From: Escherichia coli
GTDB taxonomy: Bacteria; Pseudomonadota; Gammaproteobacteria; Enterobacterales; Enterobacteriaceae
Assembly: GCF_003334785.1 (NCBI RefSeq)
Contig: NZ_QOWV01000002.1
DNA length: 64,000 nucleotides
Reading direction: 5' to 3' (one strand)
In this document: piece by piece, positions 39,001 through 44,223 of the stretch
How positions within the stretch are numbered: position 1 is the first letter of the stretch
Layout: every line of letters starts with the position of its first letter
The notes under the pieces: generated by a model
Told to the model about the DNA's origin: nothing
Databases searched by the model: none
Seen by the model: only the letters and a program-made list of their open reading frames with translations
Program-made: the position numbers and the translations under genes

Positions 39001-39972
39001 TTATTTACTGTTGTATAACAAAGTTATAACACCATCCACTACCTGAGCCATTTTCTGATAATTCAATCTGTCTGCGGTATCACCGGGCAAGTGGTATTGT
39101 TTATTACGATAAAAAGCGGTGTCAGTAATCATTATGGCGGGAATATCGTGTTGCCAATAATTCAGGTGGTCAGAGAAATCAATACCGGGAATAAACCCTG
39201 GGGTATTCATAGAATAAACAGATAAATCCTGAGATGACAACAATGCCGCTTTTACCTGACGAACGGCGTTGATATCCTGTATTCTGCCGACCACGGCAAT
39301 AAAGTCTCCCCGATCGGGATAAAGCCAGGACATTGCCGGGTAAGGGTAATTCTGGCTTCCAGGCGCAGAGTCGTAATAGCCAATCATCTCCAGTGCTATC
39401 ATTAATTTCACTGGACGCTCAAGCGAAGCTGCATGCACCGCGCTCCCCATTTCATCGCTACGAAAGAAGGGCGGTTCTTCCGACGCATAGGCGACCAGCT
39501 GCACGCCTGTTTTCGGTACTTGCTGATGTAACAAACGTGCCAGTTCGAGTAATCCTGCCACACCGCTGGCGTTATCATCCGCGCCCGGCGTATAGGTCAA
39601 TTGATCGTTTTCATAACTGCTGGCAGAGTCATAATGCGCACCAATAATAATCAGCGGTCCATCGGCAGGACCATAATCAGCAACAATGTTTTTGTAGGGG
39701 CCACCCGTAATGGGGACGTCCTGCGAGGTAACTCTGGCACCGCTACTGACAAAGACCTCTTTTATATATTCTGCGGACCTATTCAGATTATCAATATTGT
39801 CGGCACTACGTGGATGCACAGTTTGTGTAAGATAACGAACTGTTTTTTCTAATTGCTCAGGACTTGCGTGTCGGGGCGTTGACGGTAATGCATTGACCCA
39901 GGGTTGGTAAAAAATAATCATAGGGAGTAAAAACACAAATAATATAATAAAAGCAAAGATTATTTTTTTCAT
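39001..39972 (-). CDS. yfbL: Membrane-anchored M28-family zinc peptidase-like protein YfbL (~323 aa)
   Basis: N-terminal hydrophobic helix; M28 signature GADDNASGVAGLLELA and ASEEPPFF (Glu-Glu) in translation; start at 39972 or 39978. Confidence 0.85.
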   Translation of the reverse strand: MKKIIFAFIILFVFLLPMIIFYQPWVNALPSTPRHASPEQLEKTVRYLTQTVHPRSADNIDNLNRSAEYIKEVFVSSGARVTSQDVPITGGPYKNIVADYGPADGPLIIIGAHYDSASSYENDQLTYTPGADDNASGVAGLLELARLLHQQVPKTGVQLVAYASEEPPFFRSDEMGSAVHAASLERPVKLMIALEMIGYYDSAPGSQNYPYPAMSWLYPDRGDFIAVVGRIQDINAVRQVKAALLSSQDLSVYSMNTPGFIPGIDFSDHLNYWQHDIPAIMITDTAFYRNKQYHLPGDTADRLNYQKMAQVVDGVITLLYNSK

Positions 39973-40109
39973 ATGCAAATTATTAATGGGTTGCGTTGTT
40001 GAATCATTATTTGCTATGGGTTTCGATATTGTATTTTATTAAGATTAGCAGGATTATACAAAGAGTATATTTTATGTCTGGTGCCTGAGTTTATTTAAAA
40101 GGATTTTAT

Positions 40110-41837
40110 ATGCGAAATAAAAATATAATCATGTTGCTTATGAGTAGTTTGATTTTGTCAGGATGTGGGCCGCAACCTGAGAATAAGGAAAGTCAGCAAC
40201 AACAACCCAGTACTCCCACAGAGCAGCAAGTGCTTGCCGCGCAGCAAGCTGCAATAAAAGAGGCTGAGCAAAGCGCCGCCGCCGCGAAAGCCTTGGCCCA
40301 GCAAGAAGTGCAACAATATTCAGACAAACAGGCTTTACAGGGGCGATTGCAGGAAGCGCCAACATTTGCAAGAGCGGCTAAAGCAAAAGCTACACATATC
40401 GCAAATCCAGGAACCGCTCGCTACCAGCAGTTCGATGATAATCCGGTTAAGCAGGTAGCGCAAAATCCGTTGGCGACGTTTAGTCTTGACGTTGACACTG
40501 GCAGTTATGCGAATGTAAGGCGTTTCCTCAATCAAGGGCTGTTACCTCCGCCAGACGCTGTGCGGGTGGAGGAGATAGTCAATTATTTCCCGTCTGATTG
40601 GGATATCAAAGACAAACAATCTATTCCGGCCTCTAAGCCAATACCTTTCGCTATGCGCTACGAATTGGCACCTGCACCATGGAATGAACAGCGAACATTG
40701 CTGAAAGTTGATATCCTGGCGAAAGATCGCAAAAGTGAAGAGTTACCAGCTTCTAATCTGGTCTTTCTTATCGACACTTCTGGTTCAATGATTTCTGATG
40801 AACGTTTGCCACTTATCCAGTCTTCGTTGAAATTATTGGTCAAAGAACTTCGTGAGCAGGATAACATTGCCATCGTGACCTACGCTGGCGACTCCCGTAT
40901 TGCATTGCCTTCTATCTCCGGGAGTCATAAGGCGGAAATTAATGCCGCAATTGATTCGCTGGATGCCGAAGGCAGTACCAATGGCGGTGCCGGGCTGGAA
41001 CTGGCTTATCAGCAGGCGACGAAGGGGTTTATTAAGGGCGGCATCAATCGCATTTTATTAGCCACTGACGGTGACTTTAACGTTGGCATTGACGATCCAA
41101 AATCGATTGAATCAATGGTCAAAAAACAGCGGGAGTCTGGTGTTACTCTGTCGACGTTTGGCGTGGGGAATAGCAATTACAACGAGGCAATGATGGTGCG
41201 AATTGCCGATGTTGGTAACGGCAACTACAGCTACATTGATACCCTCTCTGAAGCGCAGAAAGTATTGAATAGTGAAATGCGGCAGATGTTGATTACCGTA
41301 GCAAAAGATGTCAAAGCGCAAATTGAGTTTAACCCCGCGTGGGTAACGGAATACCGTCAGATTGGTTATGAAAAGCGCCAACTTCGGGTGGAACATTTTA
41401 ATAACGACAACGTTGATGCAGGGGATATAGGCGCAGGCAAACATATAACGTTGTTATTCGAATTAACGCTGAACGGGCAAAAAGCATCAATTGATAAGTT
41501 ACGCTATGCCCCGGATAACAAATTAGCGAAATCGGACAAAACGAAAGAACTGGCCTGGTTAAAAATTCGCTGGAAATACCCGCAGGGAAAAGAAAGTCAG
41601 TTAGTTGAATTCCCGCTGGGGCCAACAATAAACGCGCCCTCTGAAGATATGCGTTTTCGCGCAGCAGTAGCTGCATATGGGCAAAAGTTACGCGGTTCTG
41701 AATACCTGAACAATACCTCCTGGCAGCAGATCAAACAGTGGGCTCAGCAGGCAAAAGGGGAAGATCCACAGGGTTACAGGGCGGAATTTATTCGCCTGAT
41801 TGAACTGGCGGATGGTGTGACTGACATCAGTCAGTGA
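40110..41837 (+). CDS. yfbK: von Willebrand factor type A domain lipoprotein YfbK (575 aa)
   Basis: Lipobox LILSGC at N-terminus; Q/A-rich low-complexity linker; MIDAS motif DTSGS (nt 40774-40788). Confidence 0.88.
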   Translation: MRNKNIIMLLMSSLILSGCGPQPENKESQQQQPSTPTEQQVLAAQQAAIKEAEQSAAAAKALAQQEVQQYSDKQALQGRLQEAPTFARAAKAKATHIANPGTARYQQFDDNPVKQVAQNPLATFSLDVDTGSYANVRRFLNQGLLPPPDAVRVEEIVNYFPSDWDIKDKQSIPASKPIPFAMRYELAPAPWNEQRTLLKVDILAKDRKSEELPASNLVFLIDTSGSMISDERLPLIQSSLKLLVKELREQDNIAIVTYAGDSRIALPSISGSHKAEINAAIDSLDAEGSTNGGAGLELAYQQATKGFIKGGINRILLATDGDFNVGIDDPKSIESMVKKQRESGVTLSTFGVGNSNYNEAMMVRIADVGNGNYSYIDTLSEAQKVLNSEMRQMLITVAKDVKAQIEFNPAWVTEYRQIGYEKRQLRVEHFNNDNVDAGDIGAGKHITLLFELTLNGQKASIDKLRYAPDNKLAKSDKTKELAWLKIRWKYPQGKESQLVEFPLGPTINAPSEDMRFRAAVAAYGQKLRGSEYLNNTSWQQIKQWAQQAKGEDPQGYRAEFIRLIELADGVTDISQ

Positions 41838-41857
41838 TGACTGTTTAGCAAACTATG

Positions 41858-41891
41858 TTCGACCAGTCAGCATATTTGCTGACTGGTCGAA
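41858..41891. terminator. Bidirectional terminator between convergent yfbK and elaD
   Basis: Near-perfect 14-15-bp inverted repeat TTCGACCAGTCAGCA-tattt-GCTGACTGGTCGAA with AT-rich flanks. Confidence 0.75.
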
Positions 41892-41907
41892 TTAATTAAC
41901 AATGATG

Positions 41908-43118
41908 TTAACTCACTCTTTTGCCGGATGCTCTATTTTTGGGTTGTGAGTGTTTTATTTCTAAGTTTCTATAATAATGATTGATATTTGCATCGCCATA
42001 TTTATCTAAATAACAATTTCTGTTTGCCAGTCGATGTTGAAAATCAATTTCGTACTGCTCTTCTGCTGAATATTTTTTAAATCTGTCAGCATAGTTTTTT
42101 AATAATGTATAGGGGGCGCTGTCAGAATTGCTTTCCCTTTGTTCAATCACTTCCTGGGCTGCCATGCACACAAATGCACCGCAACTTTGGCTTAAGTATT
42201 GCTGAAGATCGGCATGTAAAAATATTATCTCTGGTTCATTTAAATGAACTTTTATATTATTATTCGACATTTCTCCCATGAGTTCAGAATTAAAACTATT
42301 AATGACACGCTTAAGTGAATTTTCTTTATCATAGCCTAGTGCACGCAATGAGTTGAATATGACGCATTTTATTTGTAGTTTATTATTTTTTTATTTACTA
42401 TTTTCTGTAGCGAAACTAATATCCAGTGTCCGCCAGTATTTATGGGGAATAACTGGACTTCATTCGGCCATGATGGATCGCTCTTAATATTTTCATTGAG
42501 AGCGTCTTCCAGGTGAGTTCTGGTGGAGTAGGGGACGTAGAGACCAGTAGGATAATTGACTTGAGTATTTTTTGCATTAGCGGCGATCTTCTGAAGATAG
42601 CAAGCTATTTCATCTGTGGTTAATTGACGATTTTTATCCCAGAAGTTTGTACCATCACTCAGTTCATTATTCTCATCATTTAAAAGCACCTTTGAAAGCG
42701 ACTGTTTTTCAGATATAAGAGGAATTTCATCACCGATAATTGTCATTAATTTCGAAGGGGAGAATAGTTTTTTGAACAGGAGATCATCTGAATCATGTGA
42801 TTTGAGGGGGGAGTTGGTTGCGATATGTGCCAGATTATATAATTTTAAACAAGCATTTTTGATAAGTCGGATAATCGATAGGGTCTCATTTGTTGGGGTT
42901 CTAACAATATGGTAAAGAATATCTTCAGCTTCTTTCCCAAATTTATCATAACCTAACGCAATATTATGCAGTAACTCAATGCTTTCTTCATCTCCGGATA
43001 ACGCTGTTTTTTTTAAAGACTGCAGTAATTCCTCGGTCACAGTAAATTTTTCTGCAAATGTCTGACTGAGTTGCGTTTGAGATAATTGACAATAATTGCT
43101 GACAACTGTAACCATCAT
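41908..43118 (-). pseudogene. elaD: elaD (CE-clan deubiquitinase-like cysteine protease) disrupted by a -1 frameshift in an A7 run; two ORFs of 249 aa (42369..43118) and 146 aa (41908..42348)
   Basis: ORF track shows two adjacent minus-strand ORFs in different frames; adding one A to the coding-strand run at 42386-42392 restores a continuous 403-aa ORF; span is 1211 nt (not a multiple of 3). Confidence 0.85.
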
Positions 43119-43305
43119 GGGCTCCTTTTAGTTGCAAAGGTTGTGCTGAATCAAGATGAAAAGAGGCAACTTATTGCTCTGAATATAGTGCGTAAGGAGA
43201 TGAATAAATATCAAAAATCGCTCAATATGCCTGTGTGGGTGGATATATGTAGCGCGGGTTGCGATAACAGGGCAAGTTTCGCCCTGTTTTTAATAATAAG
43301 CAGAG

Positions 43306-44223
43306 TTAAACGTTAAACACGGTGAAATCATTCGCCAGTTCAGTCGCCGGGAAAATTGACCTGCATTCACGTAACAGGTGCTGACAACCTTTGTCATCAT
43401 AGCGCGAGCTGACGTGGGTAATGATTAGCTTGCCGACTCCAGCCTCACGGGCTAGTGTCGCAGCCTGGCGTGTAGAGCTATGGCCGCGACTATTGGCTTT
43501 GGCTTCCATGGTTATATCCAGCGTCGCTTCGTGCACCATGACATCGACACCTTTAGCCAGGTCAAGTGCGGCATCGCAGGGGCCGGTATCGCCGAAAATA
43601 GCGAGCGCTTTACCTGGCACTGGAGCAGCTAAGTAATCTGCGCCGTTAATCTGCCTTCCATCTTCCAGCGTGATTGTTTTGCCCGCTTTTAATTCCTGAA
43701 ACAGTGGGCCAGGCGGCACGCCAGCAGCTTTTAATGCCTGGGCATTTAATGCACCCGGTTTATCATGTTCTTCAATACGATAGCCATAACATTCCAGTGG
43801 GTGTTCCAGCGGATAAGCGGTTACTTTGCGCAGGCCATCATCGAGAATTTCGCCAGCGCCAATTTCGACAATTTCCAGCGGATAATCGGTCCATGAGCCG
43901 CTAATCCGCAGCGCGGTTTCCACAAATTCACGGATACCTTGCGGACCATAAATCGTTAAGGGTTGGATAATGCCTGACATAGAACGACTGCACAGCAAGC
44001 CGGGTAAACCAAAAAGATGATCGCCATGAAGGTGACTGATAAAAATCTTGTCCAGTTTTCCAGGGTTAAAGGCGGTATGCAGTAGCTGATGCTGGGTGCC
44101 TTCACCGCAGTCAAACAACCAAAGTCCGCTCTGGGTCGGATGTTGCAGGTTAAGCAATATTGCCGTGACATTGCGCGTGCGGGTTGGCACACCGGCTGAA
44201 GTACCTAAAAAAATTAATTCCAT
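43306..44223 (-). CDS. rbn: RNase BN / RNase Z (metallo-beta-lactamase fold, ~305 aa)
   Basis: HxHxDH motif (HLHGDHLFG) in translation; start placed at [11 protein letters not shown]; ORF track start is 44241. Confidence 0.9.

Follow-up and report, generated by a model that had tools for sequence, protein, structure and literature searches.

The genes yfbL and yfbK of Escherichia coli are transcribed divergently from the two sides of a short spacer, and the locus thus raises the question of whether their products work together. Two main alternatives are to be distinguished. The pair could be a co-regulated envelope module expressed from the shared AT-rich spacer, with the vWA/MIDAS lipoprotein YfbK recruiting or presenting a substrate to the peptidase YfbL, or regulating it; or the two proteins could be independent, with genes that are neighbours by common inheritance of the locus. 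The first-pass annotation had suggested coordinated expression. We considered the pair in its window, that is, the whole analysed stretch of 64,000 nucleotides, and in related genomes.

Layout of the locus and the intergenic spacer

The gene yfbL (39001..39972, minus strand) encodes an M28-family enzyme of 323 aa, as assigned by its ORF, the RefSeq annotation and Pfam (PF04389). On the plus strand, yfbK (40110..41837) encodes a predicted outer-membrane lipoprotein of 575 aa (ORF, Pfam). The region matches annotated E. coli chromosomes at 100% identity; these carry K-12-type yfbL and yfbK, and RefSeq names the products "M28 family metallopeptidase" and "vWA domain-containing protein"; ORFs and RefSeq annotation agree on the divergent arrangement described initially. 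Both are real genes rather than chance ORFs, already annotated and belonging to catalogued families.

The spacer (39973..40109), delimited from the sequence and a five-species alignment, is indeed AT-rich (27.7% GC). It is 137 bp long and not 131 bp as originally given, since the RefSeq start codon of yfbL is the ATG at 39972 and the earlier start was the TTG at 39978. In the alignment, a Shine-Dalgarno sequence (AAAAGGA, 8 nt ahead of the yfbK start codon) is conserved and a TATA-like element approximately 50 nt upstream of yfbK is partly conserved, while no shared operator could be called. Inspection of the sequence upstream of the yfbL start revealed no good Shine-Dalgarno sequence. The promoter scan of the region yielded 12 promoter-like matches, not clearly above the 7.3 (sd 3.2) in shuffled sequences, an example of a consensus-level match being CAGACA-16-TATAAT on the minus strand (40080-40053); the terminator scan gave three terminator-like sites, with 3.0 in shuffles. 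Neighbouring genes in bacteria are often divergently oriented, and orientation alone carries no signal. Only two regulatory mentions of the pair were found, a genomic-SELEX peak of LldR at yfbK and the induction of yfbL by MMS.

Downstream of yfbL, at a distance of 102 bp and on the same strand, lies yfbM (38395..38898, minus strand; YfbM family, cytoplasmic), which is kept in every E. coli haplotype examined. No terminator is predicted between the two genes, so yfbM may share a transcript with yfbL. The whole segment from nuoN to rbn is variable and low in GC (41.6%, compared to 54-56% in the flanks). An Rfam search over 35500-43500 produced zero matches. PADLOC models matched none of YfbK, YfbL, YfbM, YfbN, YfbO and YfbP, and with these six island proteins unmatched we rejected the reading of the segment as a defence island.

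YfbL is a predicted M28 exopeptidase

The N-terminal transmembrane helix proposed for YfbL corresponds to a hydrophobic helix spanning residues 2-22, with a Kyte-Doolittle maximum of 3.0. The proposed M28 signatures (GADDNASG, EE) are borne out by the Pfam Peptidase_M28 match (residues 95-317, E = 6.3e-25) and by the invariance of H113, D115, D132/D133 (within GADDNASG), E165-E166, E195 and H269 in 23 homologues. The putative co-catalytic zinc ligands are H113, D132, E166, E195 and H269, with E165 as the putative catalytic residue; in the alignment with 1amp they correspond to H97, D117, E152, D179 and H256, and to E151, of the aminopeptidase AAP. Thus, YfbL passes the check for the full M28 ligand set, with one conservative change, Glu (E195) at the fourth ligand position where M28 enzymes are expected to have Asp. 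The AlphaFold2 model (pLDDT 84.5) has an alpha/beta aminopeptidase fold and matches M28 structures, both aminopeptidases and type II glutaminyl cyclases, with Foldseek E-values of 1e-15 to 1e-17. By profile, ligand set and modelled fold YfbL is a member of the M28 family, and exopeptidase activity is predicted for it.

Compared to the M28 zinc aminopeptidases of Aeromonas/Vibrio proteolyticus (1amp) and Streptomyces griseus, and to Legionella LapA, YfbL has the same fold (Foldseek E approximately 1e-15 to 1e-16, TM 0.63-0.74), and the HxD, GADDxxSG, EE and SDH motifs align residue by residue. The identity is about 20%, and at the fourth ligand position YfbL has an invariant Glu (LEMIG), whereas these enzymes have Asp. 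They also are secreted in pro-enzyme form, while YfbL has an N-terminal membrane anchor and an activity predicted from sequence.

The alternative is that YfbL is a type II glutaminyl-cyclase-like or other M28-fold acyl-transfer enzyme, modifying the N-termini of exported proteins. We consider this unlikely, although it fares best among the alternatives to the explanation that we prefer. The cyclases of Bacteroides thetaiotaomicron (4fuu/7d1e) and Porphyromonas gingivalis (6qql) are equal-best structural matches: the top Foldseek matches are the Bacteroides glutaminyl cyclases 7d1e, 7d1d and 4fuu (E approximately 4e-17, TM 0.67-0.76), on par with aminopeptidases, and phmmer also matches cyclases (E from 4e-9 to 1e-5). 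Like YfbL, the type II glutaminyl cyclases of bacteria are tethered to the membrane and periplasmic, and glutaminyl cyclases retain the same five ligand positions, so the ligand conservation in YfbL does not discriminate between the two activities. Neither does the invariant Glu at the fourth position, which is typical of neither group. In sequence, however, YfbL is more weakly similar to the cyclases than to aminopeptidases, its best matches being those from Aneurinibacillus (2ek8, E = 5e-11) and Vibrio/Aeromonas (AAP, E = 2e-10), and it matches the NCBIfam LapA model (E = 2e-13). Further, E. coli is not known to require the formation of pyroglutamate.

YfbK and its relatives

YfbK carries the anticipated lipobox (L16-S17-G18-C19, in agreement with the pattern [LVI][ASTVI][GAS]C), which closes a signal peptide of residues 1-19 and is followed by G20, not Asp, at the +2 position; lipidation and sorting to the outer membrane are predicted from this signal. 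The long Q/A-rich linker noted previously spans residues 20-101 (23% Ala, 21% Gln) and includes a long helix at residues 38-78. YfbK is the namesake of a family with three Pfam domains, all present: vWF_A (102-199, PF12450), VWA (216-383, PF00092, E = 4e-22) and YfbK_C (393-568, PF12034). The last is a beta-sandwich with a helical bundle. The MIDAS motif DTSGS is intact, as claimed: D222, S224 and S226 (codons D222-T-S224-G-S226 at 40773..40787, plus strand), as well as T290 and D320, do not vary among 61 homologues.

Foldseek matched YfbK to vWA structures, the top ones being 8s05 (ArnAB), 4fx5, 6fpy (ITIH1) and Sec24, which combine a vWA domain with a beta-sandwich and a helical domain. The identity to ArnB, the Sec23-Sec24 trunk and the inter-alpha-inhibitor heavy chain is 12-17% with a whole-chain TM of only about 0.34, and the cellular compartments and partners of ArnB, Sec23-Sec24 and ITIH1 are unlike those of YfbK. 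Among solved structures, the best sequence match of the YfbK vWA domain is to Bacteroides BatA/BatB (3ibs, 4jdu; E = 1e-7), but the vWF_A and YfbK_C domains are missing from Bat proteins. The operon that encodes Bat proteins also includes a MoxR ATPase, and yfbK has none beside it. We dropped a MoxR-vWA pairing of the RavA-ViaA or Bat-operon kind, as no AAA+ ATPase is annotated between nuoN and menC. The paper on ArnAB counts predicted YfbK among the ArnB-like structures (PMC12852372). We also rejected a TonB/TolA-like "vWA force transducer" role (PMC12204202), as E. coli YfbK has no membrane helix; that paper itself terms it a free periplasmic protein. One YfbK relative (L085) adjoins a TonB_C gene.

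Among the 150 closest cluster representatives of YfbK, 108 have no N-terminal signal sequence, and a strict anti-sigma-like N-terminal motif is found in 57. Most of the first 40 representatives listed have a cytoplasmic N-terminus followed by a membrane helix near residue 75-150. N-termini of YfbK relatives match the NCBIfam "anti-sigma factor" model NF052375 (E = 1e-12 and 1e-6), and in both sampled loci of the anti-sigma type (P0275, P0263) an ECF sigma gene is directly upstream. For lipoprotein-type relatives on contigs longer than 10 kb, three of four sampled loci contain, in this order, a yfbK-like gene, an ECF sigma gene and a gene for a protein of 280-306 aa, with a clear membrane helix around position 58 in two of these three proteins. 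For the ECF289 anti-sigma factor, a fusion of DUF3520 to von Willebrand factor has been described (PMC7826278). YfbK and ECF289-type anti-sigma factors (Casas-Pastor et al. 2021, PMC7826278) have a common core of approximately 470 residues (vWF_A, VWA and YfbK_C) with 45-50% identity and identical MIDAS residues; the latter have a cytoplasmic anti-sigma domain and a membrane helix, where YfbK has a lipoprotein signal.

Thus, the YfbK core usually forms the outer domain of an ECF anti-sigma factor, or else it is a lipoprotein whose gene neighbours those of an ECF sigma factor and of a membrane protein with anti-sigma topology; since this holds in most bacteria, its ancestral role would be the sensing of signals for a sigma factor. 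E. coli YfbK itself has the lipoprotein signal only, with neither an anti-sigma domain nor a membrane helix, so it does not qualify as an ECF anti-sigma factor, and tblastn with ECF sigma queries found no match in the 64-kb window. It is best viewed as an orphan copy of an ECF-signalling module.

Conservation of the gene pair

If the two proteins formed a module, their genes might be expected to stay together. On the YfbL side, we used the best 80 of at least 600 stretches from a genome scan, which is a sample of species and not an exhaustive set. Seventy-six of these loci are non-enteric, 54 of them flanked by 3 kb or more on each side. A YfbK relative is adjacent at none of the 76 (tblastn and HMM searches). 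Near the best 80 loci, YfbK-family matches are confined to E. coli (a remnant), E. albertii, Pseudocitrobacter, Superficieibacter and one fragment, the lone non-enteric match, situated 7.7 kb from the YfbL locus in a Flavobacteriales MAG. When the neighbours at these 80 loci were clustered, no family was common to more than nine, the most widespread one (nine loci) being a generic ABC ATPase; hence YfbL has no detectable operon partner there. On the YfbK side, relatives were collected by a 50%-cluster search for diversity, with Salmonella reached by a Superficieibacter query, and no M28 gene was found beside non-enteric relatives in the sampled contexts (about a dozen, three of them on contigs of 2-9 kb whose flanks are short or missing). 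The adjacency is not conserved across the unrelated taxa sampled, and the proposed functional coupling of YfbK and YfbL fails the co-conservation test on both sides.

In the sampled genomes the pair occurs at one syntenic site only, in Escherichia, Salmonella subsp. salamae, Superficieibacter and Pseudocitrobacter. In the first three (S. enterica subsp. salamae for Salmonella) the genes are adjacent and divergent, which favours a module; in Pseudocitrobacter a 210-aa ORF splits them, which counts against one. Adjacency in at least four genera would also be expected from a weak or clade-specific functional link. In S. enterica subsp. enterica (a cluster of 2821 sequences) nuoN is followed by a yfbM-like remnant and then by yfbK, with the M28 gene absent. 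Approximately 89% of the ~170 bp upstream of yfbK is conserved there despite the missing yfbL, which again counts against a module.

Among 5426 complete E. coli genomes, with presence defined as at least 80% coverage, yfbK was scored in 2514, yfbL in 3293 and both in 2523; full-length yfbK is missing in approximately 54% and full-length yfbL in 39%. Essentially all yfbK carriers have yfbL too (2514 vs 2523), and yfbL decay, seen in about 2060 genomes, followed the deletion of yfbK and is confined to the yfbK-deleted background; both observations favour a module. Against it, about 770 genomes retain full-length yfbL without yfbK. The same 1.56-kb yfbK deletion is found in haplotypes with intact yfbL (L091) and with yfbL deleted (L002, L092), and the divergent allele L003 retains intact yfbL next to an independent yfbK deletion. 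This order, yfbK and then yfbL, is compatible with yfbL losing its value once yfbK is gone. The two genes are not jointly present or absent within the clade. Natural E. coli haplotypes carry both genes, yfbL only or neither, B derivatives and O157:H7 being without both.

Phenotypes and the remaining alternatives

Deletions of yfbL and of yfbO confer resistance to phage N4, with complementation, and the main text of this 2025 preprint does not mention yfbK (bioRxiv 10.1101/2025.09.29.679331), although yfbK could be a weaker hit in its list of screen hits (Figure S5). Two screens picked up the yfbK deletion, one on rifampin-induced persistence and one on the efficiency of RP4 conjugation. An N4 phenotype reported for yfbL and yfbO but not for yfbK also speaks against a co-regulated module. 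So does the nature of the predicted partner: the N-terminus of mature YfbK would be acylated and thus blocked, so it should not be an aminopeptidase substrate. Although a periplasmic location is predicted for the domains of both proteins, we regard a co-regulated module as quite improbable.

It is very improbable, too, that yfbL and yfbK in K-12 are inert, horizontally acquired and poorly expressed remnants drifting to loss. Such drift would agree with the low-GC variable segment, with the missing Shine-Dalgarno sequence of yfbL, with the deletions and IS insertions frequent in both genes, and with the yfbK pseudogenes reported in Salmonella serovars; but all catalytic and MIDAS residues are preserved and do not vary even among distant homologues, and both the complemented N4 resistance of the yfbL deletion, as given in the preprint, and the two yfbK screens are at odds with inert genes. 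Finally, YfbK as an ECF-type sensor lipoprotein that lost its sigma and anti-sigma partners and was rewired to YfbL in the Escherichia-Salmonella lineage, forming an enteric-specific envelope module that shapes the surface structure required by phage N4, would, if true, explain why E. coli has no yfbK without yfbL and why yfbL decays after yfbK loss, yet we hold it to be the most doubtful reading of all.

We conclude that YfbL and YfbK are probably two independent envelope proteins whose genes are adjacent by inherited synteny and form no functional unit. YfbL would be anchored in the inner membrane by its uncleaved N-terminal helix, with an M28-fold, two-zinc-type active site facing the periplasm; it is most likely an aminopeptidase-like exopeptidase, and its activity may somehow condition the envelope for infection by phage N4, given the phenotype reported by others. 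YfbK would be lipidated at Cys19 and, by the Lol sorting rule with Gly at +2, placed in the outer membrane, its vWA, beta-sandwich and helical module extending into the periplasm on a flexible tether of about 80 residues and presumably binding a ligand through the MIDAS metal site. Without a sigma partner, the enteric YfbK appears to be dispensable and undergoing loss. The divergent arrangement likely predates the split of Escherichia and Salmonella, within the low-GC nuoN-rbn segment, and would since have decayed in both directions.

Implications

As a discovery the pair is of small value: the genes are annotated, their families catalogued and the partnership unsupported. The clear negative on YfbK-YfbL coupling spares two-hybrid or pull-down work on the two proteins. 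The natural haplotypes of E. coli are ready material for probing the reported role of yfbL in phage N4 infection, and the view of YfbK as an orphaned ECF sensor provides a concrete hypothesis for a protein of a model organism that has no assigned function.

Organization of the locus

The region 38900-41900 of the window is 100% identical to annotated E. coli chromosomes, with the gene order nuoN, yfbP, yfbO, yfbN, yfbM, yfbL, yfbK, elaD, rbn, elaA, elaB, menF. The gene yfbL occupies 39001-39972 (minus strand), and yfbK 40110-41837 (plus strand; 575 aa). The first-pass annotation had described the two as a divergent pair sharing a 131-bp control region and had suggested their coordinated expression. 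The divergent arrangement stands; the spacer (27.7% GC) is 137 bp long if measured from the RefSeq start of yfbL, the ATG at 39972 (323 aa), the smaller value coming from an in-frame TTG 6 nt upstream. Apart from this choice of the start codon, the sequence observation was right, as were the protein annotations.

Both genes belong to a 7.3-kb low-GC segment (35868-43118; 41.6% vs. 54-56% in the flanks) comprising yfbP, yfbO, yfbN, yfbM, yfbL, yfbK, and elaD. The content of the segment varies between E. coli strains: three of the compared loci (L002, L091, L092) lack yfbN, yfbO, and yfbP, and in L092 an IS3-family element is inserted beside nuoN. In the window, elaD (41908-43118 overall, minus strand) is represented by two ORFs, 41908-42348 and 42369-43118; in strain AST46 it is a single 1212-bp gene. 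The window is one base short in a T/A homopolymer run near 42386, and the split is either a true frameshift or a homopolymer sequencing error.

Domains and active sites

In YfbL, a strongly hydrophobic helix (residues 2-22) follows MKK, and, as the family alignment has no conserved signal-peptidase site, this helix would be a membrane anchor. Right behind it lies a Gln-Pro pair (Q23-P24; window positions approximately 39901-39906), invariant in 23 of 23 homologues, down to 49% identity, which could be a processing site or a structural cap. The Peptidase_M28 domain spans residues 95-317 (Pfam, E 6e-25). In the alignment with the prototype of co-catalytic zinc aminopeptidases, the Aeromonas/Vibrio proteolyticus enzyme (1amp), H113, D115, D132, E165/E166, E195, and H269 correspond to H97, D99, D117, E151/E152, D179, and H256, respectively, and all these YfbL residues are invariant in the 23 homologues over the same identity range. 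The sole departure from the classical M28 enzymes is an invariant Glu (LEMIG) replacing one Asp. Thus, the refuting condition named in the first-pass annotation, a YfbL short of M28 metal ligands, does not apply. The AF2 model of YfbL (pLDDT 84.5) is as close to bacterial type II glutaminyl cyclases as to M28 aminopeptidases (E ~4e-17 to 2e-15), and sequence searches slightly prefer aminopeptidases. Since glutaminyl cyclases retain the same ligand positions, the two chemistries cannot be distinguished in silico, a peptidase being the more likely.

The YfbK N-terminus, MRNKNIIMLLMSSLILSGC, contains a lipobox (L16-S17-G18-C19) followed by Gly. Under the Lol sorting rule, lipoproteins without Asp at position +2 are directed to the outer membrane, which predicts this location for YfbK. 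An Ala- and Gln-rich stretch (residues 20-101; 23% and 21%, respectively) precedes the Pfam domains vWF_A (102-199, E 2e-32), VWA (216-383, E 4e-22), and YfbK_C (393-568, E 6e-66). The residues of the metal site (MIDAS), D222, S224, S226, T290, and D320, are invariant in 61 homologues with 41-69% identity. The AlphaFold2 model (mean pLDDT 86.6) consists of a disordered tether with a single long helix (38-78) and a compact body formed by the N-domain, vWA, a beta-sandwich (396-503), and a helical bundle (512-574). The top structural matches are the archaeal ArnAB complex, the Catenulispora vWA protein 4fx5, inter-alpha-inhibitor heavy chain 1, and Sec24; the ArnAB authors independently name predicted YfbK among ArnB-like structures (PMC12852372).

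Conservation and loss of the pair

In S. enterica subsp. salamae, nuoN, the opposite-strand M28 gene, and yfbK are arranged as in E. coli (identity 65% for YfbL and 62% for YfbK), and thus the arrangement is older than the Escherichia-Salmonella split. Subsp. enterica has yfbK (a YfbK cluster of 2821 sequences) without yfbL, a YfbM-like remnant occupying the place of the latter; despite this absence, the stretch of approximately 170 bp preceding yfbK shares 89% identity with that of salamae. Salmonella yfbK, on record as STM2315, is listed as a pseudogene in some strains and serovars. Directly downstream of it, two Salmonella loci carry a CheW/response-regulator fusion gene (L086:9832-10833, L087:9871-10872), at the position taken in E. 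coli by the deubiquitinase gene elaD. In Pseudocitrobacter, yfbK and yfbL are separated by a 210-aa lipoprotein-like ORF (L005:6867-7499, minus strand; N-terminus LLFMGC), which E. coli, Superficieibacter, and Salmonella lack.

Among 5426 complete E. coli genomes, at a query coverage of at least 80%, yfbK was found in 2514, yfbL in 3293, and a 3-kb query over both genes in 2523. These counts yield three haplotypes: the K-12 type, with both genes intact; a type with intact and annotated yfbL in which a 1.56-kb deletion (about 40241-41797) has removed yfbK (L091); and a type with the same deletion and a further one of 326 bp within yfbL (O157:H7, B-strain derivatives). In a more distant E. coli allele (L003, nucleotide identity 84%), yfbK was lost by a different deletion and yfbL is intact. 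Thus, considering E. coli and Salmonella together, each gene survives the absence of its partner in at least one lineage. Within E. coli, yfbK was not seen without yfbL, and yfbL decayed only after the loss of yfbK; owing to this asymmetry, a clade-specific link retains a small probability.

For a chromosomal locus, the alleles of 39001-41837 diverge unusually far across these genomes (nucleotide identity to the window of 80-90% in 1993 genomes, 90-95% in 1899, 95-99% in 525, at least 99% in 948). There are YfbL protein alleles at 80-93% identity, one form being 378 aa long.

We also searched one genome per species with a profile of 23 YfbL homologues, retaining the best 80 of at least 593 loci, down to 42% identity, and sought YfbK relatives near yfbL by tblastn and a YfbK-family HMM on six-frame translations. 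Among these best 80 loci, those of E. albertii, Pseudocitrobacter, and Superficieibacter were the only ones with an adjoining YfbK relative; the locus representing E. coli retains just a 48-residue YfbK remnant, and one Flavobacteriales contig has a YfbK-family fragment 7.7 kb from yfbL. None of the 76 non-enteric loci in this set has an adjacent YfbK relative (flanks of at least 3 kb on both sides in 54, at least 5 kb in 45), and clustering of all neighbouring ORFs in the best 80 loci gave no family present in more than nine. By its gene neighbourhoods, YfbL is a stand-alone gene in Proteobacteria, Bacteroidota, Verrucomicrobiota, Acidobacteriota, and others. With no co-conservation in the non-enteric loci sampled and with independent losses, the comparative evidence does not support the proposed functional coupling.

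Published phenotypes

According to a 2025 preprint, Keio deletions of yfbL and yfbO, and of no other gene of the segment, make BW25113 resistant specifically to phage N4, both being complemented by ASKA plasmids; its main text does not mention yfbK (10.1101/2025.09.29.679331). This phenotype is common to yfbL and yfbO (36775-37251) though yfbN and yfbM lie between them; YfbO has no recognisable domain and no PADLOC match. Deletion of yfbK features in a screen for lost rifampin-induced persistence and among mutants with low RP4 conjugation efficiency, and an LldR genomic-SELEX peak with a weak box match lies at yfbK; yfbL is among MMS-induced genes in an ada mutant. None of these reports links yfbL with yfbK.

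Relatives of YfbK and ECF sigma systems

The YfbK core family comprises 7150 clusters (50% identity) at E<=1e-30. Conservation (45-50% identity) covers residues ~100-570, and the N-termini differ widely. Among the 150 closest representatives, a lipobox occurs in 19 and a different N-terminal hydrophobic signal in 23, the other 108 having no signal of either type; 57 of the 150 carry a strict anti-sigma-like N-terminal motif. In most of the first 40 on the list, the N-terminus is cytoplasmic and there is a membrane helix around residue 75-150. The N-termini of two anti-sigma-like relatives match the NCBIfam 'anti-sigma factor' NF052375 (E 1e-12 and 1e-6), and in both sampled relatives of this type an ECF sigma gene is immediately upstream, in one case with a 4-nt overlap.

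The sample also included four lipoprotein-type relatives, whose architecture is nearest to that of E. coli YfbK, on contigs of more than 10 kb. In three, the gene is followed by a same-strand ECF sigma gene and then by a gene for a 280-306-aa protein, a membrane helix being clear in two of these three proteins, around residue 58; the fourth has neither gene. The sampled non-enteric YfbK-relative loci contain no M28 gene. Thus, the recurrent partner of the module is an ECF sigma/anti-sigma system rather than a peptidase; the E. coli window contains no ECF sigma gene.

The non-enteric three-gene cassettes occupy L093:6001-9327, L095:6001-9676, and L096:6001-9361; their 280-306-aa proteins have no Pfam domain, those of L093 and L096 having a short similar stretch in common. 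In one metagenomic relative (L085:1996-4524), the gene of the YfbK-like lipoprotein is preceded on its own strand, at a distance of 55 bp, by a gene for a 220-aa protein with a TonB_C domain, an arrangement reminiscent of the 'force transducer' class that has been proposed for vWA proteins (PMC12204202).

Everything described here falls within known families. YfbL would reside in the inner membrane and trim peptide N-termini at a periplasmic two-zinc site. YfbK would be lipidated and anchored in the outer membrane, its MIDAS binding a ligand; as triacylated Cys19 would block its N-terminus, it is implausible as an aminopeptidase substrate. YfbK may descend from an ECF-signalling sensor module and would now be an orphan under weak selection.
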